In this document: positions 2,751-63,528 of the stretch, piece by piece
Numbering within the stretch: the first letter of the stretch is position 1
Layout of the letters: each line of letters begins with the position of its first letter
Virus record (IMG/VR): IMGVR_UViG_3300017987_005501
DNA length: 64,000 bases
Direction: 5' to 3' (one strand)
Origin: a virus
Taxonomy: Duplodnaviria > Caudoviricetes
Notes under the pieces: model-generated
Database searches by the model: none
What the model saw: the letters and a program-made list of their open reading frames with translations, nothing else
What the model was told of the DNA's origin: nothing
Translations under genes and position numbers: made by a program

Positions 2751-3398
2751 TTAAGCCACGCTTGGCTCTTCGAACTTCGTTGTTTGAACTGCTTGCACAA
2801 CTTTAAGAATTGCTTGCTTTAGCTCTTTTGCTCTGTATGAATTAGGCCGGATTTGATCCCAAGGGAATTTCAAAAATTGAAGATTTTTAACGCATCCTGG
2901 CTTAACAAAGTTTTTATTGCTATTGATAAATTCTGCGGCTGCTTCATTCTCCCCTTTAGTTTTTTCTTTCTTCGCATCCCAACCAGACCTTATATCTTTT
3001 CCACCCCGTGCTGCCTCTAATATCCATTCAAAAATTATCTCTTCTGCTGCATGAGCATACCCATGAAAAGCAGCTTTAATTAGCTTTGCATTATTAGCAC
3101 AAAAATGTTTAAGGGCTTGAAGGGTATTTTCCGTCCCCTGTAAAGACCTTAAATTCAATTTTTCTTGAACAAATTTAAGCGACCGAAGATCCTCTTCACT
3201 TAAACTTTTAGAAAAAGTATCTAACTTATATTGAGATAAGATGTTTGCTAATGAAACTAGTAAATCAGGTAAACCTGATTCTAAAAGAGGGAGTAAATGA
3301 TAAAATTGTTTAACTTCTTCCGGGGATGAGACGGAGAATAGTTTCCCTTTCTTTAACTTTTGAGCGATCCTTTTTAATTGTATTGCAAATTTATTCAT
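2751..3398 (-). CDS. Hypothetical protein with shared N-terminal motif
   Basis: Start at 3398 (GAGG RBS) gives MNKFAIQLKRIAQKL. Confidence 0.7.
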   Translation of the reverse strand: MNKFAIQLKRIAQKLKKGKLFSVSSPEEVKQFYHLLPLLESGLPDLLVSLANILSQYKLDTFSKSLSEEDLRSLKFVQEKLNLRSLQGTENTLQALKHFCANNAKLIKAAFHGYAHAAEEIIFEWILEAARGGKDIRSGWDAKKEKTKGENEAAAEFINSNKNFVKPGCVKNLQFLKFPWDQIRPNSYRAKELKQAILKVVQAVQTTKFEEPSVA

Positions 3399-3539
3399 AA
3401 TATAACCTCGGAAATCTCCCTTTTTATAATTACAGGACATTAATAGATTATTTTTGGAAAAAATAGAACGGTTACACTTATAATCTATTACTTTTTAATT
3501 TAATTTGGTAACCGTTACTCTTTTCAGAAGGAGGTTTGA

Positions 3540-4457
3540 ATGAGAGTATCCCACCTTATTACTTTGCTTTCCGTGGTTTTTGTTTTAATGTTTATTCCAA
3601 TTGGCTATACTCAAACGAATTCCACAGTTCCCCCTGTTTCAACTGAAGAAGTTGAAATTATCGACGGGTGCGATACATTGGTAGAAAACTGTATACTCCC
3701 CTCAGTAAAGGTTGTGACCAATCGTGGCAGAGGCAGTGGCACGATTATTAACGAACGTTATATTTTAACTGCCTGCCATGTTGTTAAGGACGCGACAGAG
3801 ATTAGTATTTTGCTCCAACCAAGCATGGAAGAAATTCCTTGTGAAATTGTAATCATGGGCGATCTTGCCGACCTCGATTACGCTATCCTTAAAGTTAAGG
3901 AAGAGGAAGAAGAGGCTCTTAGAGGAGTACTTCTTCCAGAAGTGGGCGAAAATGACGAAGAGGAAGAATTTCTTTTTGAAAACTCTGCGAATGTGATTTC
4001 CACCGAAGACTTTGAAAATCTAAAAACAGGCGATGACCTGTTTGCCGTTGGTTACCCACTCGGTGGCGAATTACATATCACAAAAGGAGTTCTTTGCTCT
4101 GCAAGTAATGGCTTCTATTCCACTAGCGCCTGTGTTATCTATGGAAATTCCGGAGGAGGAATTTACACTTCAGATAATAGGCTATTTGGAGTTGTTGTCA
4201 GAATCGCAGTTAGTGGATTTACTCCGATATCTCACGTAAGCTTTGTTGTCCCGATGAGCAATGTCCGTGCGGACATCCATGAAAACGGGATGGACTTCAT
4301 CTGGGAAGGGGAACTTCCCCCAGAACCAGAAGAAGGAGAAGAAGGACCTGAGGAAGGGCAAGAAGAAGCCGGACCTGAGGAAGAAGCAACCTTTCTCCAA
4401 ATTGGGTCTTATAACACAATCTTATTGGATGATATGTACGAGCTTAGGCGAGACTAA
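3540..4457 (+). CDS. Exported trypsin-like serine protease with acidic linkers
   Basis: Signal peptide; catalytic triad LTACHVV / DYAIL / GNSGGG; GGAGG RBS. Confidence 0.9.
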   Translation: MRVSHLITLLSVVFVLMFIPIGYTQTNSTVPPVSTEEVEIIDGCDTLVENCILPSVKVVTNRGRGSGTIINERYILTACHVVKDATEISILLQPSMEEIPCEIVIMGDLADLDYAILKVKEEEEEALRGVLLPEVGENDEEEEFLFENSANVISTEDFENLKTGDDLFAVGYPLGGELHITKGVLCSASNGFYSTSACVIYGNSGGGIYTSDNRLFGVVVRIAVSGFTPISHVSFVVPMSNVRADIHENGMDFIWEGELPPEPEEGEEGPEEGQEEAGPEEEATFLQIGSYNTILLDDMYELRRD

Positions 4458-4474
4458 AACAATAAGAGACTAAG

Positions 4475-4506
4475 AAAAAAACCAAGGCTTAATGTCTTGG
4501 TTTTTT
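4475..4506 (+). terminator. Intrinsic terminator
   Basis: accaaggc-ttaat-gtcttggt stem-loop flanked by A and T tracts. Confidence 0.75.
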
Positions 4507-4578
4507 CTTTTTATCTCAGATAAAGTATTAATAATTCTATTTTGAATAATCCGCATTTATAAATGAAGAGGGTGTTAA

Positions 4579-5541
4579 ATGAAAATCCAACCAACTCGGA
4601 GATCGCGAAATCGGCAAAATTCCGCCCTAAATAGGCGACGTCCCCAAATAGTAGAATTAAGCTTTAGTGGAGGTTACCCAGAGGGGCAGACGGAATTTAA
4701 GGCTGGCGATAAAGTTAGACTTGTTGGAAGGACAGATAAGCCTTGTAATAAAATTAAGGTTTTAGATTATGGCGCTTGTACAGAGAAGATTTTTAAGTTT
4801 TCATATTCAAAAGAATTCTCTATTCTAGCCACTGTAGCAAATAGGGGAACCACCCCCCAACTCCTGTCCGCAAGAGCACAAGCAAGTGATACAGAAGGAG
4901 AATTCGGGAAAACAAGGGATTCAAACTTAAGCGGGAGCGCAATTGATGGGCAAAACCTTATTAATTGCAACAACGCACGTCCTTTGGTTCAAATTGGACA
5001 AATTAAATACCCACAAGGAGAGGGGCTAAAAAACACACAAGCCGCCCTTATAAATATTGTGGCCCGAGATTTTGAAAGTATCCAATTCGAAAGCCCTAAT
5101 AACCAGCTAGAAATTGAAAACCCAACGGAATTTGAGGCCAAGAAAAGCGCAACAAGGATTGCTGGCAGATATAACGCAAGGGATGCGAACTTTAAGGTAG
5201 TAGCTACCCGAGTAGCAAATAATACCCGAGCAGAAGCTACGGCTGTGGTAAAAATCGCGCATATCCCAGCCACGTTATCTATTAGCCCAGGATCCTTGGC
5301 AATTGGGGATAACTTAATTACAATCTCAAGTAATCAACAGCTTGTTAGTATTGGGTCCCTTGATCCAGGGGTTGGGGAATGGGTTGATAGTTGGTCAGGA
5401 GGACCTGTTAGGTTCACAAGGACTTTAAGAATTCCAGAGGGGACCCCCACTGGAACCTATTCTTGGGAGAACCTAGTAGCTTGGAATTTAGCTAGAGTTC
5501 AAACAACAGAATTTTCTAACTTAAATACCTTCACCGTTTAA
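4579..5541 (+). CDS. Beta-rich hypothetical protein, possibly virion-associated with Ig-like domains
   Basis: 320-aa ORF; Arg-rich N-terminus; beta-strand patterns with W..G and GTY.W. Confidence 0.6.
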   Translation: MKIQPTRRSRNRQNSALNRRRPQIVELSFSGGYPEGQTEFKAGDKVRLVGRTDKPCNKIKVLDYGACTEKIFKFSYSKEFSILATVANRGTTPQLLSARAQASDTEGEFGKTRDSNLSGSAIDGQNLINCNNARPLVQIGQIKYPQGEGLKNTQAALINIVARDFESIQFESPNNQLEIENPTEFEAKKSATRIAGRYNARDANFKVVATRVANNTRAEATAVVKIAHIPATLSISPGSLAIGDNLITISSNQQLVSIGSLDPGVGEWVDSWSGGPVRFTRTLRIPEGTPTGTYSWENLVAWNLARVQTTEFSNLNTFTV

Positions 5542-5552
5542 AATGGCATTCA

Positions 5553-5588
5553 GGGAGTTAAGGGAAAACACCAAAACCCTTAACTCCC
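5553..5588. terminator. Hairpin between convergent genes
   Basis: Perfect 12-bp stem gggagttaaggg / cccttaactccc with 12-nt loop. Confidence 0.65.
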
Positions 5589-5610
5589 CGAACTTTGAAA
5601 AGTGCCTTTT

Positions 5611-5961
5611 TTAGAGGCTTAGGGCCTTATTGAGCCCCAACTTACACGCACACGCATTATAGGCATCAACAGCATCCGTATAACGCTGGTAATACCCAAG
5701 ATCTTTCTTAACCCCACTATGACAAATCCGTGCGCGCCACTTACCATAGCGGTAACTAATCCCGGTATGGGGAGTCTGAACTGCACCTTGCTTACGTGGG
5801 GGCTCCTCCTGCAACTCTGTCCGGAAGAAACGATTCCGAGCTTTAACAGCTTTCTTTAAGTCTTGGTAATACCCAACATGGGTCTGATTAACGTATACAC
5901 GCCACTTACCCATTGGCTCGTTCCAATAAATTCCAAGATAACCACTTTTCGGCCACTTCAT
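5611..5961 (-). CDS. Tandem AP2-like DNA-binding domain protein
   Basis: Two AP2-type repeats (SGYLGIYWNEPMGKWRVYV..VGYY...AVKARN; TGISYRYGKWRARI..LGYY...AVDAYN); start at 5961 with AAGGAG RBS. Confidence 0.75.
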   Translation of the reverse strand: MKWPKSGYLGIYWNEPMGKWRVYVNQTHVGYYQDLKKAVKARNRFFRTELQEEPPRKQGAVQTPHTGISYRYGKWRARICHSGVKKDLGYYQRYTDAVDAYNACACKLGLNKALSL

Positions 5962-5975
5962 AATTAATCTCCTTT

Positions 5976-6317
5976 TCAAATAAATTTCTCGCAACTTGTT
6001 TGGTCGTTGACCCGCCTCTCCATTAAGCAATGTGTTTTATTGCCTACTTTTTCTAAAAGCATCACCTCCCATCTTTCGGTTGCGCTTTTATTTAGCCTAT
6101 TGGTTACAACGTCATCCGAAGGGAGGGTCAACGACCAGTACTTATATTCTACCCCTTTATACGAATCCCCAAAATCTCTTTCTAAGAGGTAATAAATTTT
6201 TTCAGCGATTTTCTCAAAACTCTTAACCTTCCATCCAATCCCCGCAAAATAATTCAGCCTGTCCGTAAATCCAAGATCAAGCGGACGCCCATAAGATTGA
6301 TATAAATATTCTTTCAT
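5976..6317 (-). CDS. Hypothetical protein with two DUF4177-like repeats
   Basis: Two ~50-aa units EY.Y...RLN....GW.V.....LLER. Confidence 0.6.
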   Translation of the reverse strand: MKEYLYQSYGRPLDLGFTDRLNYFAGIGWKVKSFEKIAEKIYYLLERDFGDSYKGVEYKYWSLTLPSDDVVTNRLNKSATERWEVMLLEKVGNKTHCLMERRVNDQTSCEKFI

Positions 6318-6401
6318 TTCCTTTCTCCTTATCTTTCATTATACAGAAATAATCTAGTAATTTCATAGGATAGTTAAGGGAATTTATGGAGATAAATAAG
6401 G

Positions 6402-6740
6402 ATGGGGAAAAAGTACGCAAAAAAACTAAAAAAAATAGCACGGGCACTTAAAAGCTTCCAATCCCCGGACTGGGAAAGGATTCCCGAAAAGGTAGAAGCT
6501 AAGATTTTAGAAGTGAAAAAGATGCCTGGGAAAGAGCTGCTTACAATTATAACAGATCTCGGGAAAGTTACTATATCCGGCAAATATAAGGATTTAGTAA
6601 ACAAGGGAAAAGAAGTTTACCTCCTCCCCGCAAAAGGAATCTTAAGGATTAACCAACACGAGATACCGACTCTAAAAATTCCACAACTAAAAGAGATCGG
6701 AGAAATGTTACCAGGAGAAGGATTTAGGCCCGAGGGTTAA
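6402..6740 (+). CDS. Hypothetical protein with shared N-terminal motif
   Basis: Begins MGKKYAKKLKKIARAL. Confidence 0.7.
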   Translation: MGKKYAKKLKKIARALKSFQSPDWERIPEKVEAKILEVKKMPGKELLTIITDLGKVTISGKYKDLVNKGKEVYLLPAKGILRINQHEIPTLKIPQLKEIGEMLPGEGFRPEG

Positions 6741-6741
6741 A

Positions 6742-7710
6742 ATGTTAAATAGATCAATTATAAATTGGTTAGAAATTAATGTAAAAGAGCCTGAAGAATA
6801 TGGGTACTTTTTCCCCGCCGCGCTAGTTGCCCTATTTCCGAAACTTTCATTAATGAAAGGAATCTACCTAACCCCGGATGGAAAAAGAAACTGCCATTAT
6901 TGGGCAGAGGAAAAAAACACAATTTATAGTGCGGGAAAAGTTTATGGCGATAGGTATATACAAATTAAACCAGTGGGTTGTGATTTAATACAAATTATCT
7001 CCGACCCTAATTTTAGTCTATTGCCCTTAGAAGACCAGTACCGTATTGTTATGAAATGGAATACAGAGTGTGAGAACTCTTACAAAGTTATTGGGACAAA
7101 TGTTTACGCAAAGAAAAAATTGGAAGCGGCAAAAACAATTAGTCCCGTTTTTTTAGGCAATAGCCCAATAAATTATTTAGGTATTTATATAGAACATTCC
7201 GATTTTCCTAATGTTACTTGGCGACAAGTTGGAAATGTTTTTACTTTTGAAACACTAAGGAATATAGATCTGAAAGAAAAGCTAACAATAAACCATAGAA
7301 CGTTTCCCAAAGGATTTACAGAAATGAAACTTTCAAGCAAACTTACGAAGATAGCTAAAGAGTTAGAAAAAGCAGCAGGAATTTTTCCGAGAAAAGTTAC
7401 CTTTCATATAGAGGGGATTGAAAAAGGAGAAGGATTCCCCACACGTGTAAGAATAAATTTAACAGAAAAGGATTCGGGTATTAAGTATTTCTGGGATATT
7501 ATGCGGGGACAAAAATGGTTCTTTGAGAATAATAATATTTTTAACGTAGATGCAAGAAAAACCAGAGAGGGCTATCTACCAATCTTAAGGGACCCAGAAG
7601 CTGGTGGTACCTATCAAGTAGCGCAGCTTTACCAGGGGGAAGCAGAGGATAGGGATAAAAATACCCACAATAGCCCCATAGTAGCAACAACCCAAATTAT
7701 TAAGGCCTAA
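6742..7710 (+). CDS. Hypothetical protein with degenerate SET-like domain and possible internal start at 7324
   Basis: IGTNVYAKKKL...LGIYIEHSDFPNV...TLRNIDLKEKLTINH resembles a minimal SET domain; AAGGA + ATG at 7324 gives MKLSSKLTKIAKEL. Confidence 0.6.
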   Translation: MLNRSIINWLEINVKEPEEYGYFFPAALVALFPKLSLMKGIYLTPDGKRNCHYWAEEKNTIYSAGKVYGDRYIQIKPVGCDLIQIISDPNFSLLPLEDQYRIVMKWNTECENSYKVIGTNVYAKKKLEAAKTISPVFLGNSPINYLGIYIEHSDFPNVTWRQVGNVFTFETLRNIDLKEKLTINHRTFPKGFTEMKLSSKLTKIAKELEKAAGIFPRKVTFHIEGIEKGEGFPTRVRINLTEKDSGIKYFWDIMRGQKWFFENNNIFNVDARKTREGYLPILRDPEAGGTYQVAQLYQGEAEDRDKNTHNSPIVATTQIIKA

Positions 7711-7722
7711 CAAGGAGAAGAA

Positions 7723-7986
7723 ATGAAAAATAATAACCTAATTAACTCTTTCAGAAAATTAACGGCATCGCAACAATTAATTAATAAATTTAAAAAAGCG
7801 GCAGCAGAAATTGGGGAAGGAGAAGGTTTTAAGCCAGCTATTTATAATGCCCTAAAAGAAGCAGTAGAAAAAGGCTTATCCTTCCAAGATGCAAAAGAAT
7901 TCGTAGAATCTAAGGTAGGCGGGCTTGTTCTTGGGGAAGCAGATTACAAACAGATGTGCGATGAGCTAGGGAAAAAACCTTGCTAA
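7723..7986 (+). CDS. Hypothetical protein
   Basis: AAGGAG RBS; 87 aa; helical N-terminus ending KKAAA. Confidence 0.7.
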   Translation: MKNNNLINSFRKLTASQQLINKFKKAAAEIGEGEGFKPAIYNALKEAVEKGLSFQDAKEFVESKVGGLVLGEADYKQMCDELGKKPC

Positions 7987-7997
7987 AACATACAATG

Positions 7998-8023
7998 AAA
8001 AAAGGAGGGCAACCCTCCTTTTT
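7998..8023. terminator. Bidirectional intrinsic terminator
   Basis: aaaaaaggaggg-caa-ccctccttttt between convergent genes. Confidence 0.85.
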
Positions 8024-8040
8024 CCTTTTTAAATCACTTT

Positions 8041-8334
8041 TTAGGGAAGTTGATTAAAATCTGTTGCGTTAGGCATTGCGTCGAGTTCTAAAGTTGTTTC
8101 CTCTATCTTATTAGAAGTTTCTTTGCAGGAGCATTTTTGGTCAACTAACTTCTCAATTAGCTCTGCATCTAGGATTACCTTAATTTCTGGGCGGAAGAAA
8201 TTAGTGAAAAACTTGAAGGCAGCAACCAAAACATCTTTCGCGAGCTGAATAGCAGTTAAAACGATGATTGAGCTAAAAACTACAACTAGTATCTGAATAA
8301 CAACGTCCATCGCCATAAAATTAGTTAAATCCAT
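8041..8334 (-). CDS. Small single-pass membrane protein
   Basis: N-terminal hydrophobic helix; AAGGA RBS. Confidence 0.65.
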   Translation of the reverse strand: MDLTNFMAMDVVIQILVVVFSSIIVLTAIQLAKDVLVAAFKFFTNFFRPEIKVILDAELIEKLVDQKCSCKETSNKIEETTLELDAMPNATDFNQLP

Positions 8335-8369
8335 TTTCTTTTCCTTTCGTGTGTAAAATAACGAACCTT

Positions 8370-9713
8370 TTAATCCTCAGATATATAACAAGAATATTTC
8401 TCGGTATAAGCCATTCGGTCACGAGAAACTGCAGCACAGGACACGCTTAATAGATTATCAATTCCTAAAGTGATATCATATCTTCCGGCCTCTAACCCAG
8501 GAGGAATTCTAAACTTCCCTGATAGTTCAAAAGTTTCCCCTTCTTCAAGATATTGCGTCTCTTCGTTCCTATATCGAATTTGCCCGAACCAAAAACCGTC
8601 ATCCCTTCGGCTCCGAATTAAATACCATCCATGAAGAAAACTTAATAATTCTAAATCTGTGTTCACTCTATTTTCAATGTTTAATGTGAATTCTACCTCT
8701 TCCCCAACAACCATGTCGTTAAAATCTGCTTCAATTAAAACCTTTCCGTATGCTTCTTCCCTTGGGAAACAAATCATTGTTTTAAGCTCATAATACGTAG
8801 CATCTAGGAAAGGGGTAGAAAAAGACCTTGTTCCATAATAAAGTCCTCTTAGTGGAGGAGAAAAATTAATGGTTACCTGAAAAAGCCAAATCCCAGGATC
8901 CTTAAAAGCAGCTTTTTCTATAAAATGAGTCCAAGTTTCATTCGCCCTATAATAACGATATTGATGTATATTAGAGATTTCTGACGGAATTCTACTATAC
9001 GGACTTCTTCTCCTAACCGGAAAACCAAAAAGCTCTGGGATATATACTCTTGGTTCCGGGTCGCTGAACTTCTGATAATACTGTATATAATTTACTGAGG
9101 AGCTGTGATGCTCGGTTGCCCAGAAACCCCCATTCTCAGAAACGGTAGTATTTAACTCAATTAAGCATGGAACATTGCGAAGCCGAGAGGTATGCTCTGT
9201 TATTTCGGGAAAATCGAAAATAAGTTCAAATTCTCCTTCAATTGGCCGATGAATAACTTCTTGAATTTGGTCATTTATGTTTGGGATATTTACTAAAGCA
9301 CTAAGGGCCGAAAGTCTTACTAGAGAGTTCTGGTCTAAAAGCTTTGGTAATTCCCTTTCTAAGGTTTCCCTACAATTTAAAGGAATCCACCCTAAAGGAA
9401 CTAAAGCAGCTTGCAAACGCCAACGCTGTTCTAATTTTAAACTATAATATTGGGATTCCAAAAAAGGAATATCATCTTCTGTAACATATTCGGATAGTTC
9501 CTCCGTAGCTATATCTCGCTCTTCCTGAGTATCTGCATTCAGCTTTTTTAATAAATCAATTAGGTATAACCTTCTTAGCCTTTCGGGGGAAATTTCTTCC
9601 TCCTGTTGTTCTGCTACATTACATGGGGGGTCTTTTTGAAAGCTTTTCAATAGAGTTAAGTAAGAAAGGAAAAGGCAAACTATAAAGATAATAAAGAGTT
9701 GTAAAGGTTTCAT
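8370..9713 (-). CDS. Membrane-anchored protein with HEAT-like repeats and C-terminal Ig-like domain
   Basis: N-terminal TM; LIDLLKKLNADTQEERDIATEEL and VRLSALSAL HEAT-like helices; C-terminal beta sandwich with GRYDITLG. Confidence 0.65.
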   Translation of the reverse strand: MKPLQLFIIFIVCLFLSYLTLLKSFQKDPPCNVAEQQEEEISPERLRRLYLIDLLKKLNADTQEERDIATEELSEYVTEDDIPFLESQYYSLKLEQRWRLQAALVPLGWIPLNCRETLERELPKLLDQNSLVRLSALSALVNIPNINDQIQEVIHRPIEGEFELIFDFPEITEHTSRLRNVPCLIELNTTVSENGGFWATEHHSSSVNYIQYYQKFSDPEPRVYIPELFGFPVRRRSPYSRIPSEISNIHQYRYYRANETWTHFIEKAAFKDPGIWLFQVTINFSPPLRGLYYGTRSFSTPFLDATYYELKTMICFPREEAYGKVLIEADFNDMVVGEEVEFTLNIENRVNTDLELLSFLHGWYLIRSRRDDGFWFGQIRYRNEETQYLEEGETFELSGKFRIPPGLEAGRYDITLGIDNLLSVSCAAVSRDRMAYTEKYSCYISED

Positions 9714-9749
9714 CTTTCAAACGCTCCTTTTCTTTATAATACAAAAGGA

Positions 9750-9772
9750 AAGCCCCGGGTCCTCCGGGGCTT
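9750..9772 (-). terminator. Intrinsic terminator
   Basis: aagccccgg-gtcct-ccggggctt stem-loop downstream of the minus-strand Ig gene. Confidence 0.6.
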
Positions 9773-9858
9773 GTTGTTTTCATCCTTTTTTATGGTACCT
9801 ATTGTAGGTGAATCTGAGGTTTGTTAGTCCCGCCATCCAGGCGGACTCTTTCGGTGCC

Positions 9859-10950
9859 TCAGCCACCCGATATATCTCGAACCCCTAACCGCAGTATTCT
9901 TCCAGAGCCTGCGGCAAGAAGTTGATTTACAATGCTTAATCCCGAACTATTCAAATTTGTTGTTCGAGAGCCTGTAGGGCTATTACCCAGGGTAACCGTT
10001 ACAAGGGTGCCACCACTCCCGCTGGTAGGGCAAATTTCTGCCGCCGCTGATGTTGCAGCAGAACCCCCAGAAGGAGCATTATGTGTTGTCCGTGCAAAAG
10101 CAAAAGTAGTATCGGCTGAGATTAAACTAAAATCAATGCTAGCGGTAGTAACTGTAGTTCCTACCGGGACACTCGATAAATCAAATTCCCAATATCCAAC
10201 GTAGGTGTAGCTAACACAATGATTTCCATAGGTATCAATTGTTCCTACCGTAAAAGAGGAGGATGCAACAGTAATATAACCGCATTGTGTTGCGGTAATG
10301 TCCCAGTTACCCCCACCCCCGCCAGTAATTGCGATAGTTAAATTTTGAAGGTCCACCCCGGAAGCAGCATCACTAACGCGGAGAGTAAAACTACTATTCC
10401 CAGCAGTAGTGGGTGTTCCACTAATTCTCCCCGTTGTAGTATTAAGCGAAAGTCCAGGAGGCAAGCTTCCCGAGGTTATAGAAAAAGAATATGGGGTTGT
10501 CCCCCCTGTTACGCTTATAAATTGGCTATAAGCTTGCCCAACGGTCCCTCCAGGCAAGGATGTTGTATTAATTGTTAAAGGAGGAGGAGTTGTTGAGACG
10601 ACTATTGTGAGTGGCTGGGTGTCCGAATCTGAATTGTCATCTATGACTCGAATCGTAAATGTATAAGTCCCATTCGTAGTTGGGGTTCCACTTATAACCC
10701 CAGCTAAACTAAGGCTTAGTCCGGGAGGCAAACTTCCCGAAAGTAATGTAAAAGTATATGGGACACGGCCACCACTAACAGAAATACTGGCAGTGTAAAG
10801 GTTTCCACGTGTTGCCGCTGGCAAACTTGAAGTATTTATATTAAGTTGCTCGGCAGGAGGGGGAGAGGTCCCTCTTACTGCTTCTTTACACCCCAGGCAA
10901 CTAAAAACGAATAAGGCTGCGCATATGATCAAAAGCATGCGTACCCTCAT
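9859..10950 (-). CDS. Lipoprotein with two putative Ig (He_PIG-type) repeats
   Basis: Signal peptide ending SCLGC; two repeats IxTxSLP..GxxY...SxxGGxxPYxF....GSLPPGLSL...GxISGTPT. Confidence 0.85.
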   Translation of the reverse strand: MRVRMLLIICAALFVFSCLGCKEAVRGTSPPPAEQLNINTSSLPAATRGNLYTASISVSGGRVPYTFTLLSGSLPPGLSLSLAGVISGTPTTNGTYTFTIRVIDDNSDSDTQPLTIVVSTTPPPLTINTTSLPGGTVGQAYSQFISVTGGTTPYSFSITSGSLPPGLSLNTTTGRISGTPTTAGNSSFTLRVSDAASGVDLQNLTIAITGGGGGNWDITATQCGYITVASSSFTVGTIDTYGNHCVSYTYVGYWEFDLSSVPVGTTVTTASIDFSLISADTTFAFARTTHNAPSGGSAATSAAAEICPTSGSGGTLVTVTLGNSPTGSRTTNLNSSGLSIVNQLLAAGSGRILRLGVRDISGG

Positions 10951-11013
10951 GGGTTTTCCTCCGTATGTTTGAAATAGTAAGGGGCGTAGGGAAGACCGAA
11001 TTGAGCTTAAAAA

Positions 11014-11086
11014 TGGCGGATACTGGAATTGAACCAGTTTATCAGGTTTATGAGACCTGTGAGATAATCCACACCTCCCATCCGCG
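11014..11086 (-). tRNA. tRNA-Met(CAU), initiator-like but atypical
   Basis: Cloverleaf CGCGGAT / GAGG-TCTC / CAGGT-CTCATAA-ACCTG / ACTGG-TTCAATT-CCAGT; C1 unpaired, A11-U24; CCA not encoded. Confidence 0.75.
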
Positions 11087-11094
11087 ATATTTAG

Positions 11095-11210
11095 AGCGGG
11101 CGGCGGGAATTGAACCCGCGTGATCAGCTTCCATTGGGTCTAACTAAAAAGTAAAACTTTATAGCGAGGCACAAAGGAAGGCTGAAGCTTTACCACTAAG
11201 CTACGCCCGC
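11095..11210 (-). tRNA. tRNA-Gly(UCC) with 45-nt insert (11131-11175) in the anticodon loop
   Basis: GCGGGCG/CGCCCGC acceptor, U73, D arm GCTT-AGTGGTA-AAGC, T arm GCGGG-TTCAATT-CCCGC; removing the insert restores TCAGC-CTTCCAA-GCTGA and a 71-nt body. Confidence 0.85.
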
Positions 11211-11254
11211 AATTAATCTTTATGCTTATATTACTAAATTATTATAGGAAGAAA

Positions 11255-11491
11255 CTAGTTTTGCTTTCGATTCTTTTGCTTAAGCCAATTATCAACGGCA
11301 GCTTTCCAAGTCCCACCCGCTGCAATTGTTCCTAGGTCATCCCCCGCGTAAGACCAAACTTCCCACTGATGCTTAAGTGAGCTCCATGTTATAATATATT
11401 TTTCGTTAATATTCTCATAAGGACGATATCCATTGATATGGCCCTTAAACCAAAAACGCCAAGAAGTTCCTCTATAGGTTTTTCCTCCCAT
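11255..11491 (-). CDS. Hypothetical protein, Trp-rich
   Basis: 78 aa; AAGGAGG RBS. Confidence 0.65.
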   Translation of the reverse strand: MGGKTYRGTSWRFWFKGHINGYRPYENINEKYIITWSSLKHQWEVWSYAGDDLGTIAAGGTWKAAVDNWLKQKNRKQN

Positions 11492-11526
11492 CTCAAATTC
11501 CTCCTTATCTGATAATACGGGAGGAA

Positions 11527-11883
11527 TTAATCTTTTTTCTGGCGTTTTTTTAATTCTTTGACGACTTGTTCCCTAAACTTAGAAATAGATGAGTGTTGAA
11601 TATTTCCCCAACGAAAACCGGAACCGGTTAAATAGTTACGTATAATGAGAAGCTTTTTAGTGGTCGTTTTTGTAACAGGGCCTAACCACCTTCGAAGCTT
11701 TCGAACATTAGCTTCTTTATTCTCTGCCCAGGTTCCTTTTAATACTTCTCTCAGCTTTTGCCAAGATTTCATCTTGACAATTTCTTTCATGATATATTCG
11801 GTATCGCCAATCTTGTATTTTTTGACAGCGAGTTTTTGGATCTCGGACGAAAGAATATAAAGTTTTGAGATGATGTTCCGCAT
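11527..11883 (-). CDS. Basic hypothetical protein with shared-type N-terminus
   Basis: MRNIISKLYILSSEIQKLA; coupled to the upstream gene. Confidence 0.7.
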   Translation of the reverse strand: MRNIISKLYILSSEIQKLAVKKYKIGDTEYIMKEIVKMKSWQKLREVLKGTWAENKEANVRKLRRWLGPVTKTTTKKLLIIRNYLTGSGFRWGNIQHSSISKFREQVVKELKKRQKKD

Positions 11884-12549
11884 TTAAGCCATAGCTGGTA
11901 CTGCCTCAGCTCCCCCAGGTTGGTCCTCTCCAGCAATTTCTTGGATTTGCTCCCAAAGCTGCCCGAAGTCTTCAAAGTTCTTAAGATCGCTCCAGGATAT
12001 TTTCTTTGTTAATTTAAGAAGGTCTTCTTTTTTATTCGTTGTTCGCGTTATTTCTCCAAGATACCTTAATAGCTCAGAAAGTTTTTTCCCGGAAGCTAAC
12101 CCCAAAGATAGGAGCCAGAGGGCCATTTGCCCCGCTTTAAGGCTTAGGATACTTGCAAATTTCCCTACTGAATTCTGATTTTTATGTAAACCCAAAACCC
12201 AATCTTGAAGCCACCCTATTCCATATTTTCCTATAATTAAATTAAAAAAATGAAGGACCCACTTTAAGCCAAAACCCCCGGCTTCAAGTAAAAGGCCAAT
12301 AAGCCATTTTACCCCTTTTCCGATCCCTTTAAGAATATCCATGATACCAAACCCCAATTTCAGGGTTGAGGGAATTTCAAAAATTCCTTCATATGGAGTA
12401 TTATTAAAAGCTTCCTTAAAAATCGCGCATTTATAATAATAGTCAGCTTCTGAGAAACTGTTTTGGAGTAAAGATGCCTTAAACTGATTAACCACTGTGG
12501 TATTTTCTAAGTTTTGGGCTAGTTTCTCTATTTTAGTTGATATTTTCAT
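11884..12549 (-). CDS. Hypothetical protein with Gly-rich amphipathic helices
   Basis: MKISTKIEKLAQNL N-terminus; GFGIMDILKGIGKGVKWLIGLLL amphipathic segment. Confidence 0.7.
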   Translation of the reverse strand: MKISTKIEKLAQNLENTTVVNQFKASLLQNSFSEADYYYKCAIFKEAFNNTPYEGIFEIPSTLKLGFGIMDILKGIGKGVKWLIGLLLEAGGFGLKWVLHFFNLIIGKYGIGWLQDWVLGLHKNQNSVGKFASILSLKAGQMALWLLSLGLASGKKLSELLRYLGEITRTTNKKEDLLKLTKKISWSDLKNFEDFGQLWEQIQEIAGEDQPGGAEAVPAMA

Positions 12550-12560
12550 AGGATTTCCTT

Positions 12561-13337
12561 TTAGGCAGCTTCTGCCTTTGCGCCAACAGTTTCTATAAGA
12601 TTAATAGCCCCTTCGTCTTTTGAGGCAGCAACAGCTTTAGTTATAAACTCCGCAATAACTTCTTCTTTTACAATCCCTTTTTTCCTTATTATATCAAGCA
12701 ACTTTACACGTTCTTCTTGTGAAAGCTGTTCTACGTATTTTTGTAACCATCTTTTACCTTCAGGGCTAGAAAGTTTTTCGGCAATAAAAGCCGTAAAATC
12801 CTCTCCGAAAATAGTAAGGGCAGTTTCTAGGGCTTTGGGTTTTTCCATAATTTTCTGCCAATCCTGAATGGTTAACTTACTAATTCCTTCCCTGTCCACA
12901 ACGTATCCTAATTTTTCTAGAAAAGCACCTTGGAGATGCTCCGCCTCTCCCTGCAAAAAGTACCCGATACCAAAACCACTAAGCAAAGCAAGGATGCCTG
13001 GCAAAGTAACGAGAGCGGCTAAACCAGCAACTCCCCCCGAGCCGATAATAGCAGTCCCAATAACCGCCCCAACAGCAAAAGAAAGAATTGGGGCGCTTAA
13101 ACGAATTGCTATAGCTTGAACCCAGGACCACCCTTTTCTCAAAATCTTTTTGGTATTTTCCCAAAGGTCCCCAAGCCAACCAGCTTGCTTCATATAATAA
13201 GCTGCCCTATTAAGGAGAAAAGATCTCTGTTTATTGTTGGCTACTCTTATAGAGAAAGCGGCGTTTAATGTAGCATTAGCAAGTTTTTGGTAATATTTGA
13301 CTTTGGCGTCAATATTGTAATCTAGAACTAATTCCAT
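12561..13337 (-). CDS. Hypothetical protein with internal glycine-zipper TM hairpin
   Basis: ~45-aa hydrophobic Gly/Ala-rich stretch, no signal peptide. Confidence 0.7.
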   Translation of the reverse strand: MELVLDYNIDAKVKYYQKLANATLNAAFSIRVANNKQRSFLLNRAAYYMKQAGWLGDLWENTKKILRKGWSWVQAIAIRLSAPILSFAVGAVIGTAIIGSGGVAGLAALVTLPGILALLSGFGIGYFLQGEAEHLQGAFLEKLGYVVDREGISKLTIQDWQKIMEKPKALETALTIFGEDFTAFIAEKLSSPEGKRWLQKYVEQLSQEERVKLLDIIRKKGIVKEEVIAEFITKAVAASKDEGAINLIETVGAKAEAA

Positions 13338-13404
13338 GAAATTCTCCCAAAGACAGATTATCCTTTATAGATATTTGCCTATTAGTGAATTATTAAAAAA
13401 TATT

Positions 13405-13833
13405 TTAAGGGATTCCGAGGTAATTATACGAATACCGAGACTGGAAGTAAGGGGGATCTATTTTCTTCATACGAAATTTCATTCTTTCTTTATGCTCTTG
13501 CCGACAGTAAAAGAAGTTTACGAGCTCTACAAACTCTAAAAAAGAATCAAACCCTTCATTATAAAGGAGCTGCCCAATAAAGCGGATAACATGATTAGGC
13601 CCTGTTAATAAAGCTTCTAATTCAACCTCCTCCCCCTCTTCTTCTATCCAATCCCCATCAGTCCCACATTCTAGCTCAAAACAGGCAAGATCCACATCGC
13701 CGATGGGGTATAAAAGTTCGAAATAGGTATCTTGCCCGTATTTAGGGTAATCTGGATATTTTACTGAGAATTCATAATCGCCGTCGGGTCTTCTAACAAT
13801 AAAGAATTGAAGGTTAGTTTTCCGTTTCGCCAT
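13405..13833 (-). CDS. Hypothetical protein
   Basis: 142-aa acidic ORF overlapping the upstream gene; GAGG RBS. Confidence 0.6.
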   Translation of the reverse strand: MAKRKTNLQFFIVRRPDGDYEFSVKYPDYPKYGQDTYFELLYPIGDVDLACFELECGTDGDWIEEEGEEVELEALLTGPNHVIRFIGQLLYNEGFDSFLEFVELVNFFYCRQEHKERMKFRMKKIDPPYFQSRYSYNYLGIP

Positions 13834-14215
13834 CTGAAATATCCTCGTCTAAATCTTCTGAGGAACAATAAACATTCCAACATTTTCCGTATGCAATTGC
13901 CCATTCAGGGCCATGGTCTTCCGTTTCATACGGGGTAAACCATGTTAGAGCATGTGCCCACTCGTGAATTAAGATATGGATTGCGGCACCTTCAGCTTCG
14001 TCCTTATGAATTCTAACAACAAAACGCTTTGCTTTTTTATCATACTTACAAAAACCTGCGGTGTCAGGCTCCGAAATAGAAATTCTTCGAACTTCTACGG
14101 GGAATCTGGGAGGGAGTTCGTTTCTTAAATCGTATAAAATGGAGCGAAAACTTCCAAGTTTACTTGCTTTTTTTGTTTTCGTGACCTTATGTTCCCTTTT
14201 TCTTTTCTTTTTCAT
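13814..14215 (-). CDS. SprT-like HExxH zinc metalloprotease domain protein
   Basis: HILIHEWAHAL followed by DHGPEW. Confidence 0.75.
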   Translation of the reverse strand: MKKKRKREHKVTKTKKASKLGSFRSILYDLRNELPPRFPVEVRRISISEPDTAGFCKYDKKAKRFVVRIHKDEAEGAAIHILIHEWAHALTWFTPYETEDHGPEWAIAYGKCWNVYCSSEDLDEDISDGETEN

Positions 14216-14358
14216 TGAAAAACTCCTGTATATATAATATACTCATGGAATATTCCAGGGGTAAGGCAAAAGAGGGTTTGAAAAGATTTCCCTTAAAACT
14301 AAATCGCATATATCTAGTATTAGATAGGGAAGGAAAAAATTTTAGGGGAGTAACCAAA

Positions 14359-14904
14359 ATGGAACAAACTCAAGAAAAACAGTGGTACGCGATCTCTATT
14401 CATAAGTTTAGAGACAATTATCCAACATTTGAAAAAACAATCTTACAGGCTTATGCAGATAAAGTTGATGACGTAGTTATCCCTAAGATGGTAGAAACCG
14501 TCCATAATAAAGGGAAAAAAGAAGATGTTACGTCGAGAATGTTTGGAAATTATATTTTTATTCATGCCAATATGGATGTTTATCTAATCGACGCCCTTAA
14601 AGACACTACAGGGATTTCGATCGTCTATCCAATTACCCCATTAGATCCCGTAGAAATTGAACAATACCGGGAGGTTAAAGAAGTTAAAAGCGAAAGTGGG
14701 GAACTTTTAGGGGATGGAGAAATCGAGGAAGAAAACCTGGCTGAATTTTTTGATCTAAATGACCGAGTTTATCTCACTACGCTTGGCGTAGAAGGATTCG
14801 TTCAGGGAACAAAAGGTAATAAAGTTTTAGTCGAAGTAGATATTTTAGGAACGAACGTTGTGGAAGTAGATCCAGTCAACGTAGAAAAGTGTGCTGAAGA
14901 ATAA
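14359..14904 (+). CDS. NusG-family transcription elongation factor (NGN + KOW)
   Basis: QWYAI...VVIP...MFGNYIFIH NGN domain; FDLNDRVYL..VEGFV..VLVEVDILG KOW-like domain; start moved to 14359 (GGAG RBS). Confidence 0.8.
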   Translation: MEQTQEKQWYAISIHKFRDNYPTFEKTILQAYADKVDDVVIPKMVETVHNKGKKEDVTSRMFGNYIFIHANMDVYLIDALKDTTGISIVYPITPLDPVEIEQYREVKEVKSESGELLGDGEIEEENLAEFFDLNDRVYLTTLGVEGFVQGTKGNKVLVEVDILGTNVVEVDPVNVEKCAEE

Positions 14905-15094
14905 GGCAAAAAGAATCGCAATGATGCGGATCAACTCTGAGCTTTGTTCAAATTGTGGTCTATGTGTTGATTCATGCCCAATGGAAATCATTAAATTAGT
15001 TGATGGAAAATTCATTATTCCAGAAGACGATTGCACTGGGTGTAAAGCTTGTGCGGAAGAATGCCCTAACAAGGCAATCGAAGAAATAGACTAA
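14891..15094 (+). CDS. 2x[4Fe-4S] ferredoxin
   Basis: CSNCGLCVDSCP and CTGCKACAEECP; true start may be 14921 or 14924. Confidence 0.9.
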   Translation: MLKNKAKRIAMMRINSELCSNCGLCVDSCPMEIIKLVDGKFIIPEDDCTGCKACAEECPNKAIEEID

Positions 15095-15162
15095 ACGAAG
15101 TTCTTTAACAATTTGACCTATTTTAACTTGAACTTTTTCAAGCATAGGGAGTTATACTGTTT

Positions 15163-15511
15163 GGGGCTGAAAAGGGATCGACAGGTAAATAAGGGTTATG
15201 GTTGCGTGCCGCGGTTAGTCGGCTGGCCGCGTTAAAAGCCGACTCGTCAAAACAACTGACGAACCTGTTTACGCAATGGCTGCTTAAAGCCGTCGTCCTT
15301 GTAGAGTTTACTTAGGACCCTATAAAGGACGTTAATGCACTAAGTGGGAAGTCCGGGAAGTTACGGACCTCGGAGTAGGTTAGTTCCAAGTTCGCTCACA
15401 CGACACCGATTAACCAAAACGAGTACACCTTTAGAGGTGATAGTGAGCTACGCACGTAGAGACCATAGTCTAGATTTACACTGGAAGCGGGTTCAATTCC
15501 CGCCAGCTCCA
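15163..15511 (+). ncRNA. ssrA: tmRNA
   Basis: 5' GGGGCTG..GGATCGAC; 3' T arm GCGGGTTCAATTCCCGC and CAGCTCC-A pairing with a G.U wobble; internal tag reading frame; smpB 1.4 kb away. Confidence 0.95.
15258..15287 (+). other. tmRNA tag reading frame, (A)DEPVYAMAA
   Basis: AAAACAACT-GAC resume context, then GAC GAA CCT GTT TAC GCA ATG GCT GCT TAA; the resume codon is inferred. Confidence 0.75.
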
Positions 15512-15513
15512 CT

Positions 15514-15542
15514 AAAAAAGCCGCAGAAAATTGCGGCTTTTT
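15514..15542 (+). terminator. Terminator after tmRNA
   Basis: aaaaaagccgca-gaaaat-tgcggcttttt. Confidence 0.85.
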
Positions 15543-15556
15543 ATATCTTAAATACC

Positions 15557-15766
15557 ATGGATTCTGAAAAACAAGAAATAGAGATCAGGCGCATACCAGA
15601 GTTTCCCGAAAAACTTTATGAGCTTGAAATCATTTATAAAAACCTCAAAGGTGATATAAGCCTAACTTCTGGTTTTATTGAAGATGTCCCTGCATTTCTT
15701 CAGGTAATAGAAGAATTAGAAAAATGGGGATATGAAATTATTGCCTATAGTTTTGGAAAGCATTAG
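15557..15766 (+). CDS. Small hypothetical protein
   Basis: Start moved to ATG 15557, downstream of tmRNA and its terminator; 69 aa. Confidence 0.55.
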   Translation: MDSEKQEIEIRRIPEFPEKLYELEIIYKNLKGDISLTSGFIEDVPAFLQVIEELEKWGYEIIAYSFGKH

Positions 15767-16524
15767 TGAGGTTTGGGCCAAAAGTAACTAACCCAATCAT
15801 TTTCTTGCCCTCCTCTTTCCTCGTATAATCGGCTTTCTTGGGAAACTGGGACCCCTTCCCTACCAACCCAGTAAATTTCTTGGGGAGAAATTACTAAGAC
15901 ATTTCCATACCTGTTACCAAAAGTTCCGACATAAAGACCAGAACTAATTTGTGGTTTTCCAGAAACATAATTAATTCGTGGTCCTTCCGTTACAGTAAGG
16001 ATAAAAGCTTTCTCTGTAGGACTTGTAGGGAAAAGTTCTTGTGTTATTGTTTCCTTAAACTCCCGAGCTTTTTCCTCCGTTAAAAGTTGCTGCTCCTGAA
16101 TAGACCCAGCTTCCCAGCTCTCGTCTGCCTGCCCTGTTTGTTCTGTTGAGGATCCTCCCGGAAGGAGTTCACCAATTTTAAGCTCTCCTTTTTGATGTAA
16201 AACAATTAGAGCTAATGCAAAAAGAAGCAACGAAACGCCGAAAAGTTTTTTGAGAGAACCGGCAGCCCTCGCCGCAAATTGTTCTTGAAGTTCCTTTTCT
16301 AAAACCTTTTGCATTTCTTCTAAGGAACCGGCTGATTTTATTAACTCAGCAAATAACCAACGTAGTTTTTCTTCCGTAACGTCGGAAAAATCAATTTGGC
16401 CTATATCGAAAAATTTCTTCAAATAAGTTAAATTTTGGTTCGAAAAAATCGACTGTGGGTTTCGTATAAAAGATTGGAGTTTGAGGTCTGCTGCAAGTTT
16501 AAGTAGTTGTTTTGATAACTTCAT
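15763..16524 (-). CDS. Hypothetical protein with shared N-terminal motif and internal TM helix
   Basis: MKLSKQLLKLAADL; LFGVSLLLFALALIVL; AAGGAG RBS. Confidence 0.7.
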   Translation of the reverse strand: MKLSKQLLKLAADLKLQSFIRNPQSIFSNQNLTYLKKFFDIGQIDFSDVTEEKLRWLFAELIKSAGSLEEMQKVLEKELQEQFAARAAGSLKKLFGVSLLLFALALIVLHQKGELKIGELLPGGSSTEQTGQADESWEAGSIQEQQLLTEEKAREFKETITQELFPTSPTEKAFILTVTEGPRINYVSGKPQISSGLYVGTFGNRYGNVLVISPQEIYWVGREGVPVSQESRLYEERGGQENDWVSYFWPKPH

Positions 16525-16568
16525 CTTAAGGCTCCTTTTCTATAAAAAACAAGCGATAAATAGATTAT

Positions 16569-16913
16569 ATGCGTTTTTTTCGTTGCCAATTCAAAGAAAC
16601 AAAAAGAATTCTTCCCCCTAAATCTAGGAAGAATAACGATAAAACATATCAAGAGGATAAAGAAGATATAGTGTATCTTACCTGTGATTTTGGCACAGCC
16701 GTTGTGCTAGGGAACTTTTTGGGGAAATACCGGCACGAAAAAGGAAATAAATTTTACGTTTACGAGTTTGAAATTGATAAAAGAGACCCAAGGCTAACTA
16801 GAAGAACAAATGCAGAATTTTGGTATCAGGGAGAAATTACGCAGTTTAAGTTAGGGGTAAAAGAAGTAAAGTTTGATAAAACAGTACAAATTAAGGAAAT
16901 AATCCTTTTCTAA
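16569..16913 (+). CDS. Hypothetical protein
   Basis: 114-aa ORF; no clear RBS. Confidence 0.6.
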   Translation: MRFFRCQFKETKRILPPKSRKNNDKTYQEDKEDIVYLTCDFGTAVVLGNFLGKYRHEKGNKFYVYEFEIDKRDPRLTRRTNAEFWYQGEITQFKLGVKEVKFDKTVQIKEIILF

Positions 16914-56949: not shown

Positions 56950-57057
56950 AAAGTTTACCTGGGTAAGTTTTTTTACACACTAATGTATAATATTCTAATT
57001 ATATATCTATCTTTAATAGAAATAGATAATTTCAAAATTTCTCTCTTTTAAAGAAAA

Positions 57058-57324
57058 ATGAAGCATAAAAATAGACTTTTAAGAATCGCATACACCTTGA
57101 ACACAGCAGCAGACAGTCTAGAGCAGCTAACGGAGAAGCTTTCATCTGCCAGGAAAGAGTTAAAGCAGATTATGAAAGAAAAGGGTATAAAACTCCCCGT
57201 CGAGACTAAACACACCAAAAAAGGATCATACCTAAAAGTTTCTTATTTCGAAGAAAAGCCAGACCTCCCGAACGAACTAAATAAAATCGAAATTCGATTT
57301 GCCAAGAAGAAAAAATCTCAATAA
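57058..57324 (+). CDS. Hypothetical protein with shared N-terminal motif
   Basis: MKHKNRLLRIAYTL. Confidence 0.65.
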   Translation: MKHKNRLLRIAYTLNTAADSLEQLTEKLSSARKELKQIMKEKGIKLPVETKHTKKGSYLKVSYFEEKPDLPNELNKIEIRFAKKKKSQ

Positions 57325-61565: not shown

Positions 61566-62012
61566 TTAGATTTTTTCTAGTTCGAGCCTAAACCATAGCT
61601 CCAAAGGTTCCTTAGAAGCTTTTCCTTTCGGGGAATTGTGCTCTATTCCCTTCCCCAACTGTATGGAATAATAAGTTTTAATCGTGCTTTTTAGTATATT
61701 TTTAACTACCGAATTAATCTCTTCAATTGCTTTGTCAGCTGCTTCCTTTGTTTTTTTATTAACCCTACAAAAAATGGTTAAGTACGATTTTTTACCCGCA
61801 CGCGAATCTAGCTGAAACTCCATTCTTAACCCATTGGGTGGATTTATTGCTTTATAGTAGTATCTTAAACCCTCTCGGTCTCCCATATAAATGGAATCAA
61901 GTTCATTTTGTAAGGCATGGTCTAGGAGAAAAATAGTATCTGTTTCAACTATTTCCCTAGCAAATCTTTTTAGAAGCGATGTTAATTTTATAAGTTTTTC
62001 AGATGATTTCAT
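61566..62012 (-). CDS. Hypothetical protein with shared-type N-terminus
   Basis: MKSSEKLIKLTSLLKRFA. Confidence 0.65.
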   Translation of the reverse strand: MKSSEKLIKLTSLLKRFAREIVETDTIFLLDHALQNELDSIYMGDREGLRYYYKAINPPNGLRMEFQLDSRAGKKSYLTIFCRVNKKTKEAADKAIEEINSVVKNILKSTIKTYYSIQLGKGIEHNSPKGKASKEPLELWFRLELEKI

Positions 62013-62094
62013 TCTTTTGCGCTTTTTTGTTATTAAAACTCAAGGTATAAAAACGGTAAAAATTAATGGATTATTGTTTCAAAGGAGATTTAGT

Positions 62095-63497: not shown

Positions 63498-63528
63498 TTT
63501 TTTAGGAGATTACTTAAAAGGAAAAATA

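Follow-up and report, generated by a model that had tools for sequence, protein, structure and literature searches.

At the N-termini of eight small, otherwise dissimilar proteins of an uncultured phage lies a common peptide, M-K-[LI]-S-x-[KQ]-L-x-[KR]-[IL]-A-x-x-L, which is genuine and fixed in position relative to Met1. The best reading of this tag, taken by analogy with the capsid targeting sequence (CTS) of phage T4, is that it may load proteins into the virion or prohead, although we hold this tentatively and at a little under even chances. The sequence examined amounts to 147.6 kb of a genome of about 400 kb, with the genes for the major capsid protein, scaffold and prohead protease outside it, and is centred here on a stretch of 64 kb (the window). 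The tagged genes of the window and the promoter-like boxes that accompany them are as follows.

2751..3398, minus strand: tagged orphan gene, 215 aa, pI 9.5; tag MNKFAIQLKRIAQKL, coded by 3354-3398
3439..3452, minus strand: promoter-like box AATAATCTATTAAT, 40 nt before the 3398 start
3479-3492, plus strand: mirrored copy of the box, upstream of the gene for a secreted trypsin-like peptidase (3540-4457)
6348..6361, plus strand: promoter-like box AATAATCTAGTAAT, 40 nt before the 6402 start
6402..6740, plus strand: tagged orphan gene, 112 aa, pI 9.8; tag MGKKYAKKLKKIARAL
6742..7710, plus strand: orphan ORF, 322 aa, which holds an internal tag
7324..7710, plus strand: probable nested in-frame gene, 128 aa, pI 9.3, beginning with the tag MKLSSKLTKIAKEL
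11884..12549, minus strand: tagged orphan gene, 221 aa; tag MKISTKIEKLAQNL; second in its operon; the protein has hydrophobic stretches rich in Gly
13381..13394, minus strand: promoter-like box AATAATTCACTAAT, upstream of 12561-13337, the first gene of the operon to which the tagged 11884-12549 belongs
15763..16524, minus strand: tagged orphan gene, 253 aa; tag MKLSKQLLKLAADL
16556..16569, minus strand: promoter-like box TATAATCTATTTAT, 31 nt before the 16524 start
56989..57002, plus strand: weaker promoter-like box AATATTCTAATTAT, with 2 mismatches, 55 nt before the 57058 start
57058..57324, plus strand: tagged orphan gene, 88 aa, pI 10.0; tag MKHKNRLLRIAYTL, matching the regular expression given below
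61566..62012, minus strand: probable tagged gene, 148 aa, pI 9.4, called in public assemblies; variant tag MKSSEKLIKLTSLL with Thr replacing Ala
62062..62075, minus strand: promoter-like box AATAATCCATTAAT, 49 nt before the 62012 start

The core expression [KRQ][LI]x[KR][IL]AxxL finds six matches in the 72 genes of the window (20,567 aa) versus 0.05 expected from composition, a count that is partly circular since the expression was derived from its own matches. Shuffled controls (n=2000) contained on average 0.06 matches and never more than 2. The six strong peptides reported in the initial annotation are all present, and a six-frame scan of the whole 64 kb returned the same six places and no others. 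The N-terminal position reported there was likewise borne out: every core begins 5–7 residues after a Met, which for five of the six strong copies is a gene start and for the sixth is the internal Met at 7324. In leave-one-out profiles, five of the seven tags took first or second place when held out, in a ranking of all six-frame segments of 138 kb not used for training. The same profile scan brought out the eighth tag, which begins a 192-aa orphan encoded 37.9 kb upstream of the window and scores 8.7 bits, while all remaining segments scored 4 bits or less. It also adds gene 61566-62012 to the set; this weak match of the initial annotation scores 4.3 bits when left out and is graded probable. 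A second weak match, at 11527-11883, falls below 1.4 bits and has been dropped, and the suggestion that the tag is often followed by a K/R-x-A site is true for just two of seven tags.

The start of gene 2751..3398, for which no Pfam or PHROG family was found, is placed at 3398 because a promoter-like box overlaps the ATG of the longer ORF (3438-3440) and because the same start is called publicly in a Logan contig. The nested start at 7324 has its own Shine-Dalgarno pairing (-5.4 kcal/mol versus a median of -5.7 for true starts), and its tag reaches 15.3 bits when left out of the profile; an AF2 model of the enclosing 322-aa ORF is uninformative (pLDDT 31). In members 57058 and 61566 the ribosome-binding site and the profile support are both weak, and the tag of 57058..57324, which has a weak Shine-Dalgarno site, fails the leave-one-out procedure.

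Most tagged genes are preceded, 31–55 nt upstream and at a variable distance from the ATG, by the box AATAATCTAnTAAT. In its strict form (AATAATYYRnTWAY) it occurs seven times in 138 kb, six times upstream of genes, and four of these six are tagged genes or an operon containing one. Looser copies lie upstream of 15763, 57058 and the gene at -37.9 kb; the tagged gene 11884 and the nested 7324 start have no box of their own. No clear copy was found at the collagen-fibre operon (start 47102, minus strand), which should be late. Two sigma-like proteins are encoded in the window.

The tag also recurs beyond this phage, on two metagenome contigs (L036 and L084) of 30 % GC that have no DNA similarity to the window. 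On each of them two tagged genes lie side by side, their bodies unrelated and the box again upstream. The search that found the contigs did not require a second tag on either, and that of L036 was the top unselected ORF-start match in 1.44 M residues.

As a set, the eight tagged proteins are small orphans (88–253 aa), mostly basic, with a pI above 8.8 in seven of the eight compared with 45 % of other small proteins. BLASTP between their bodies detected no similarity, which agrees with the earlier description of the bodies as unrelated, and searches among 5.8 billion proteins for relatives of three of them returned none in all three cases. The earlier remark that recognisable enzymes lack the tag is also upheld, since none of the 30 genes whose domain is recognised (in Pfam or in the public records' own gene calls) has the tag, compared with 7 of the 38 that have no such domain (Fisher p=0.015). 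Six of the eight proteins look soluble. Protein 15763..16524 has a single membrane-helix-like segment (residues 88–106), and the Gly-rich stretches of protein 11884 stay below the threshold which that segment meets.

The tag itself is predicted to form a 14-residue cationic amphipathic helix with an apolar stripe made of L7, I/L10, A11 and L14. Its hydrophobic moment is 0.57–0.87, whereas other N-termini have a median of 0.40 (p=6e-7), and its charge ranges from +1 to +7. In an alignment of 12 tags, the Ala is near-invariant at fixed spacing (10 of 12), with Ser or Thr in the rest. No conserved residue was found in this alignment downstream of L14, where Glu occurs in three of the 12, and a Glu-type cleavage site at the tag end (I/L-x-E as in T4, S/A/G-x-E as in phiKZ) is absent from the 12 tags as a conserved feature.

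The closest precedent is provided by the T4 internal proteins IPI, IPII, IPIII and Alt, a diverse group whose sole common part is an N-terminal targeting sequence of 10–19 residues (Mullaney and Black 1996, via PMC9026906, PMC3012670). In both phages a short N-terminal peptide that begins with Met-Lys and shows hydrophobic residues at helix-like intervals is carried by diverse, often basic, fast-evolving small proteins, the genes of which are scattered and have their own promoters. However, the T4 peptide (MKTYQEFIAE) is acidic and unrelated in sequence to the present cationic tag, and it ends in a gp21 cleavage site (I/L-x-E) that has no counterpart here. Moreover, packaging and cleavage are proven in T4, whereas packaging by the present tag is putative. 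The phiKZ-like phages (SPN3US, phiKZ, 201phi2-1) also have ejection-type proteins with N-terminal targeting regions: in SPN3US the N-terminal 15-mer is the same in the paralogs gp53 and gp54, and the ejection protein gp47 combines a propeptide with a membrane helix, comparable to the membrane-helix-like segment of the tagged 15763 (PMC5694885). Their propeptides are, in contrast, mostly longer than 100 residues, end in A/S/G-x-E and belong to conserved families (PMC5694885), whereas the present tag has 14 residues and is found on orphans. Analogous N-terminal leaders, putative cargo tags, have been reported by computational analyses on unrelated proteins of other huge phages (e1-370441, MNRYDIALGKKPPP; e1-5379433, MNWYK...; e1-5370560, MEMxIALAA) and have the same architecture with differing sequences. 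Encapsulin cargo-loading and microcompartment encapsulation peptides are short amphipathic helices that dock unrelated cargo on the inner face of a shell. Encapsulin shells share the HK97 fold with phage capsids, and their cargo peptides are not necessarily cleaved but are mostly C-terminal, unlike the present N-terminal tag. No BMC or EutN shell gene was found among the Pfam matches of the genes in the 147.6 kb read.

We would describe the tag as a portable N-terminal address or docking peptide whose apolar stripe may pack against one common partner protein, and which the phage places on small, mostly basic, fast-evolving orphans whose transcription would start at a single class of phage-specific promoter-like boxes. 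The likeliest partner would be the assembling head, be it the scaffold or core or the inside of the capsid shell. By analogy with the T4 internal proteins and their targeting sequence, we infer that the partner belongs to the head and that the tagged proteins are packaged into the virion; some of them might, purely by inference, then enter the host along with the DNA. The initial annotation had already proposed an address tag for head packaging. In favour of this proposal are the position-fixed N-terminal peptide, the unrelated and mostly basic orphans, its absence from recognisable enzymes, the common box and the T4-like pattern; against it stands the lack of a conserved Glu-type cleavage site. 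Further points count against a loading tag: one copy is internal to a 322-aa ORF, the tagged genes in the window sit amid auxiliary rather than structural genes, and the fibre operon has no clear box. A broader version of the proposal, which we consider unlikely, is that in a clade of huge phages from marine and sediment habitats an uncleaved cationic helix and a dedicated promoter class form a general cargo code. The helix would dock in an encapsulin-like manner on the inner capsid or scaffold, so that the product of any newly gained gene could be taken up by the head and carried into the host, and nested starts such as 7324 would yield tagged and untagged forms.

If the tag does load the head, it would mark the injected arsenal of an unculturable phage lineage and point to candidate host-takeover or counter-defence proteins among featureless orphans, and its 14 residues could serve as a handle to package foreign proteins. 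The T4 idea of a capsid address would then have arisen with a different chemistry, cationic and without a Glu cleavage site.

Three other explanations have to be weighed. Since box and tag co-occur, and AAA as second codon favours translation, the tag could be functionless as a peptide and represent a translation-friendly start or the coding portion of a 5' cassette (promoter, RBS and first codons) that moves by recombination to the front of new genes. This is very improbable. No DNA repeats linking the tagged genes, nor any common block beyond the 14-nt box, were found in the window; the spacing from box to ATG varies; and 11884 and the nested 7324 are tagged yet box-less. Furthermore, the copies use differing synonymous codons at the conserved positions, which shows that selection acts on the peptide rather than on the DNA, and the tag-coding DNA of L036 and L084 is merely 52–73 % identical while the peptide pattern is kept. 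The tag is thus under selection at the protein level.

A peripheral membrane-binding helix or topology signal, which would bring late proteins (for lysis, exclusion or DNA entry) to the inner face of the host membrane with no head packaging, is improbable as well, although to a lesser degree. It would fit the cationic amphipathic helix, the membrane-helix-like segment in 15763, the sub-threshold hydrophobic stretches in 11884 and the several secreted proteins or lipoproteins encoded in the region. However, a narrow apolar face with a near-invariant Ala at fixed spacing suggests helix-to-protein packing rather than lipid binding, six of the eight tagged proteins look soluble, and membrane binding needs neither a conserved Met-Lys nor a fixed distance from residue 1. 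Slightly less probable than a membrane helix is a recognition leader for one phage enzyme or chaperone, such as a modifying enzyme, the ClpB/ClpA-like ATPase (21560-23923) or a protease. Among the phage's gene products are four radical-SAM proteins and a Clp-type ATPase, as well as a peptide deformylase and a methionine aminopeptidase of its own, and a box-driven trypsin-like peptidase gene is divergent from the tagged gene 2751; this peptidase, however, carries an export signal which the tagged proteins lack. The radical-SAM genes are QueE-like (53662), small (63006), Elp3-like (about -8 kb) and SPASM-like (about -74 kb), and none is beside the main cluster at 2.7–16.5 kb. A leader for a radical-SAM/SPASM maturase, which should be encoded within a few genes of the tagged genes, was rejected on this ground. 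Should the tag prove to be of the enzyme or membrane type, it would still define a co-regulated set of proteins with one common partner, a tractable target.

A Sec, Tat or lipoprotein signal peptide was also considered and rejected, as it needs a hydrophobic core of at least 10 residues after the charged N-region. The tag has no such core: residues 1–16 of the tagged proteins have a mean hydrophobicity of about -0.2, and polar residues follow beyond L14. True bacterial signal peptides that match the same DNA pattern differ in appearance from the tag.

A short N-terminal peptide of 14 residues, M-K-[LI]-S-x-[KQ]-L-x-[KR]-[IL]-A-x-x-L, is shared by the following genes of the phage and is referred to below as the tag.

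2751..3398 (-), tagged gene
6402..6740 (+), tagged gene
7324..7710 (+), probable tagged reading frame nested within the gene 6742..7710
11884..12549 (-), tagged gene, part of an operon
15763..16524 (-), tagged gene
57058..57324 (+), tagged gene
61566..62012 (-), probable tagged gene
37.9 kb upstream of the window, tagged gene for a 192-aa orphan

The tag is real. The six strong peptides described in the initial annotation were all found at the positions claimed, and their core, [KRQ][LI]x[KR][IL]AxxL, matches six times in the window gene set, the same six being the sole matches in six frames, where 0.05 would be expected from composition and 2000 shuffles give a mean of 0.06. In every copy the motif starts 5–7 residues after a Met. 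Since this regular expression was written from the matches themselves, a profile was built on the seven window tags as a further test. Its training members score 21–28 bits, and on leave-one-out five of the seven still come first or second when set against every other segment in the six frames of 138 kb; the weak members are 57058, which fails, and 61566, which reaches only 4.3 bits. The best non-training match of the full profile over the six frames of these 138 kb (8.7 bits, all else being at or below 4 bits) is the N-terminus of the orphan at -37.9 kb, MKRKFSNLLYRLANQLESF. The profile does not support a weak match formerly proposed at 11527-11883, which was discarded, and a K/R-x-A site said to follow the tag often is present in only 2/7 and was likewise abandoned. 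The 9.4 kb past the window end are free of tags.

The codons used for the conserved residues differ from copy to copy, and no DNA repeat joins the tagged genes except a 14-nt promoter-like box upstream. Together these two observations argue that selection keeps the peptide; judged from the sequences, its object is thus the peptide and not the DNA. The remainder of each protein is unrelated, as initially annotated, with no pairwise similarity between the bodies. The proteins are small (88–253 aa) and 7/8 have a pI of 8.8–10.0, as against 45% of other small proteins; one contains a membrane-helix-like segment. None has a Pfam or PHROG family, the three searched among 5.8 billion proteins (3/3) have no relatives there, and two have none in IMG/VR. 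The earlier remark that recognisable enzymes lack the tag also holds: 0/30 genes with a recognised domain carry it, compared with 7/38 without (p=0.015).

The internal copy at 7324 retains an initiator-like Met-Lys-Leu-Ser, and its Shine-Dalgarno pairing of -5.4 kcal/mol (median of true starts, -5.7) puts it in the top 15% among internal ATGs. The likeliest readings are a nested in-frame start or a recent fusion; a precedent is T4 gene 21, a head gene with an essential start inside its reading frame (PMC9026906). The AF2 model of 6742-7710 has a pLDDT of 31, which is too low to use and says nothing on the tag. In the same region (6700-7830), a short G-E-G-F-[RKP]-P motif is common to three adjoining genes: 6402, 6742-7710 (in its 7324 part) and 7723. 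It is visible in the DNA too, as an 80% repeat at 7417 and 7810.

The box, AATAATCTAnTAAT, lies 31–55 nt ahead of the starts of 2751, 6402, 15763, 61566, 57058 (here with 2 mismatches) and the gene at -37.9 kb, and it also precedes the operon holding 11884. Its spacing to the ATG varies, and box and tag are therefore separate elements. Stricter copies number seven in 138 kb, 6/7 preceding genes; besides the tagged ones, these lie ahead of the tRNA cluster and of an 804-aa orphan. A copy with a looser match is found ahead of the gene for a secreted, trypsin-like peptidase (3540-4457, +). This serine peptidase, trypsin/HtrA-like and bearing an export signal, is divergent from tagged gene 2751, behind a mirrored copy of the box. 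The fibre operon in the window has no clear box. Two adjoining, weak sigma-70-family (ECF/SigK-like) proteins, encoded at 51928-52674 and 52812-53552 (+), are candidate readers of the box.

What does the tag do? The closest described system is the capsid targeting sequence of T4, where diverse, often basic internal proteins have in common only an N-terminal peptide of 10–19 residues that binds the scaffolding core (PMC3012670, PMC9026906). Propeptides on the ejection proteins of giant phages, some of which have membrane helices, extend this idea (PMC5694885). As in T4, the peptide is portable and N-terminal, the putative cargo consists of orphan, basic proteins, and each tagged gene has its own putative promoter; the tandem tagged genes found in relatives of this phage match the T4 pattern too, and the tagged genes may form a late class. 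Unlike in T4, sequence and charge differ, and the tag comes with no Glu-type cleavage site. By this analogy we tentatively favour a role in loading proteins into the phage head, to which we give somewhat less than an even chance. The tag sequence would then appear to be a new variant within a known kind of system, with a predicted function.

The tag is strongly amphipathic, its hydrophobic moment being 0.57–0.87 where other N-termini have a median of 0.40 (p=6e-7). With a charge of +1 to +7 it is also cationic, and it is not hydrophobic; a Sec, Tat or lipoprotein signal is therefore ruled out. We consider it unlikely that this amphipathic tag is a membrane-binding helix. The tag's apolar stripe is narrow, with a near-invariant Ala at fixed spacing, and fits a helix that lies packed in a groove on a single partner protein. 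That the tag is a leader to be recognised by some enzyme or chaperone is a slightly poorer prospect still, and for the enzyme version no radical-SAM maturase is encoded near the tagged genes. Least probable by our estimate, and quite improbable, is a mobile 5' cassette without function, a reading at odds with the codon evidence.

A degenerate DNA scan of metagenomes returned, among the matches listed, mostly an unrelated 232-aa soil family and chance matches, from which two tiny contigs of 1.2–1.4 kb (L036 and L084) stand out as useful. Their GC content is about 30%, and neither resembles the window at the DNA level. L036 stems from a JGI sample series that also yielded one contig of this phage, and L084 from a different sample. 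On each, two adjoining genes start with the tag, encode proteins otherwise unrelated to each other and follow box-like sequences. The second tag on either contig was not demanded by the search, and that of L036 is the best unselected match at a long-ORF start in 1.44 million background residues. These paired genes and box-like sequences argue that the tag-plus-box system belongs to a wider, unsampled clade.

In IMG/VR the degenerate pattern gave 11 matches, all due to chance and in short ORFs. In prokaryote genomes it yielded signal peptides and AbrB-type antitoxin starts, and none of these genomes had several tags. A conserved small ORF starting MKITKKIVKIAQSLGIIIDK, matched repeatedly in DPANN archaeal MAGs (L186, L164, L072, L032 and about 12 other loci), is a false-positive class whose start looks like that of an AbrB/SpoVT-type antitoxin. 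The soil-bacterial 232-aa family starts MKLSRKILKFAEPLTYRRGWRR (L016, L025, L040 and about 25 other soil metagenome loci, among the matches listed) and is unrelated to the phage tag. A 12-tag profile had 0 matches among 1.84 billion representative proteins, being too short for a database that large.

The 64 kb belongs to an uncultured phage of very large size. DNA identical to the window is present in several assemblies from sediment and seawater, the largest contigs being of 283.5 kb and 335.5 kb, and all assemblies are 100% identical over the stretches compared. From the contigs that do or do not hold window genes, we infer a genome of roughly 366–413 kb. An exact 46-mer of the window has no match in IMG/VR or in prokaryote genomes, nor does megablast match 8.7 kb of it to GenBank phages. 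The window encodes collagen-like fibre proteins, a tmRNA, SmpB, two tRNAs, a ClpB/ClpA-like ATPase, the two sigma-like proteins and many orphans, as well as a methionine aminopeptidase (47875-48636) and a peptide deformylase (49421-49975), both of which process protein N-termini; a start with Met-Lys, such as the tag has, would retain its Met. Tagged protein 11884 ends in ...AVPAMA, resembling the end of the phage tmRNA tag peptide DEPVYAMAA (11884-11900 and 15163-15512), a possible mimicry of a degradation tag; the phage encodes its own tmRNA and its own SmpB. A 97-aa protein (63460-63753, +) has a match to the Acb2/Tad1 hairpin domain (E=1e-8) and is a possible sponge of cyclic-nucleotide defence signals.

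The sequence followed on either side of the window, to -74 kb and +9 kb, does not include the head module. Upstream of window position 1, from 0 to -74 kb (L138, L141, L146 and L148-L151, stretches of the same phage), lies a glycosylation and sulfation island that is without the tag save for the orphan at -37.9 kb. It comprises about 30 glycosyltransferase, sulfotransferase, sugar-nucleotide and sulfate-activation genes, including a 1636-aa multi-domain transferase and an intein-bearing UDP-glucose dehydrogenase, together with an IS605 OrfB/TnpB pair, a glutamine synthetase and an Elp3-like tRNA-modification enzyme. On the other flank, L193:11545-20492 (+1.5 to +9.4 kb from the window end) encodes DHFR, a NeuB-like synthase, a Ser/Thr protein kinase, ribosomal protein S21 and DNA gyrase A and B.
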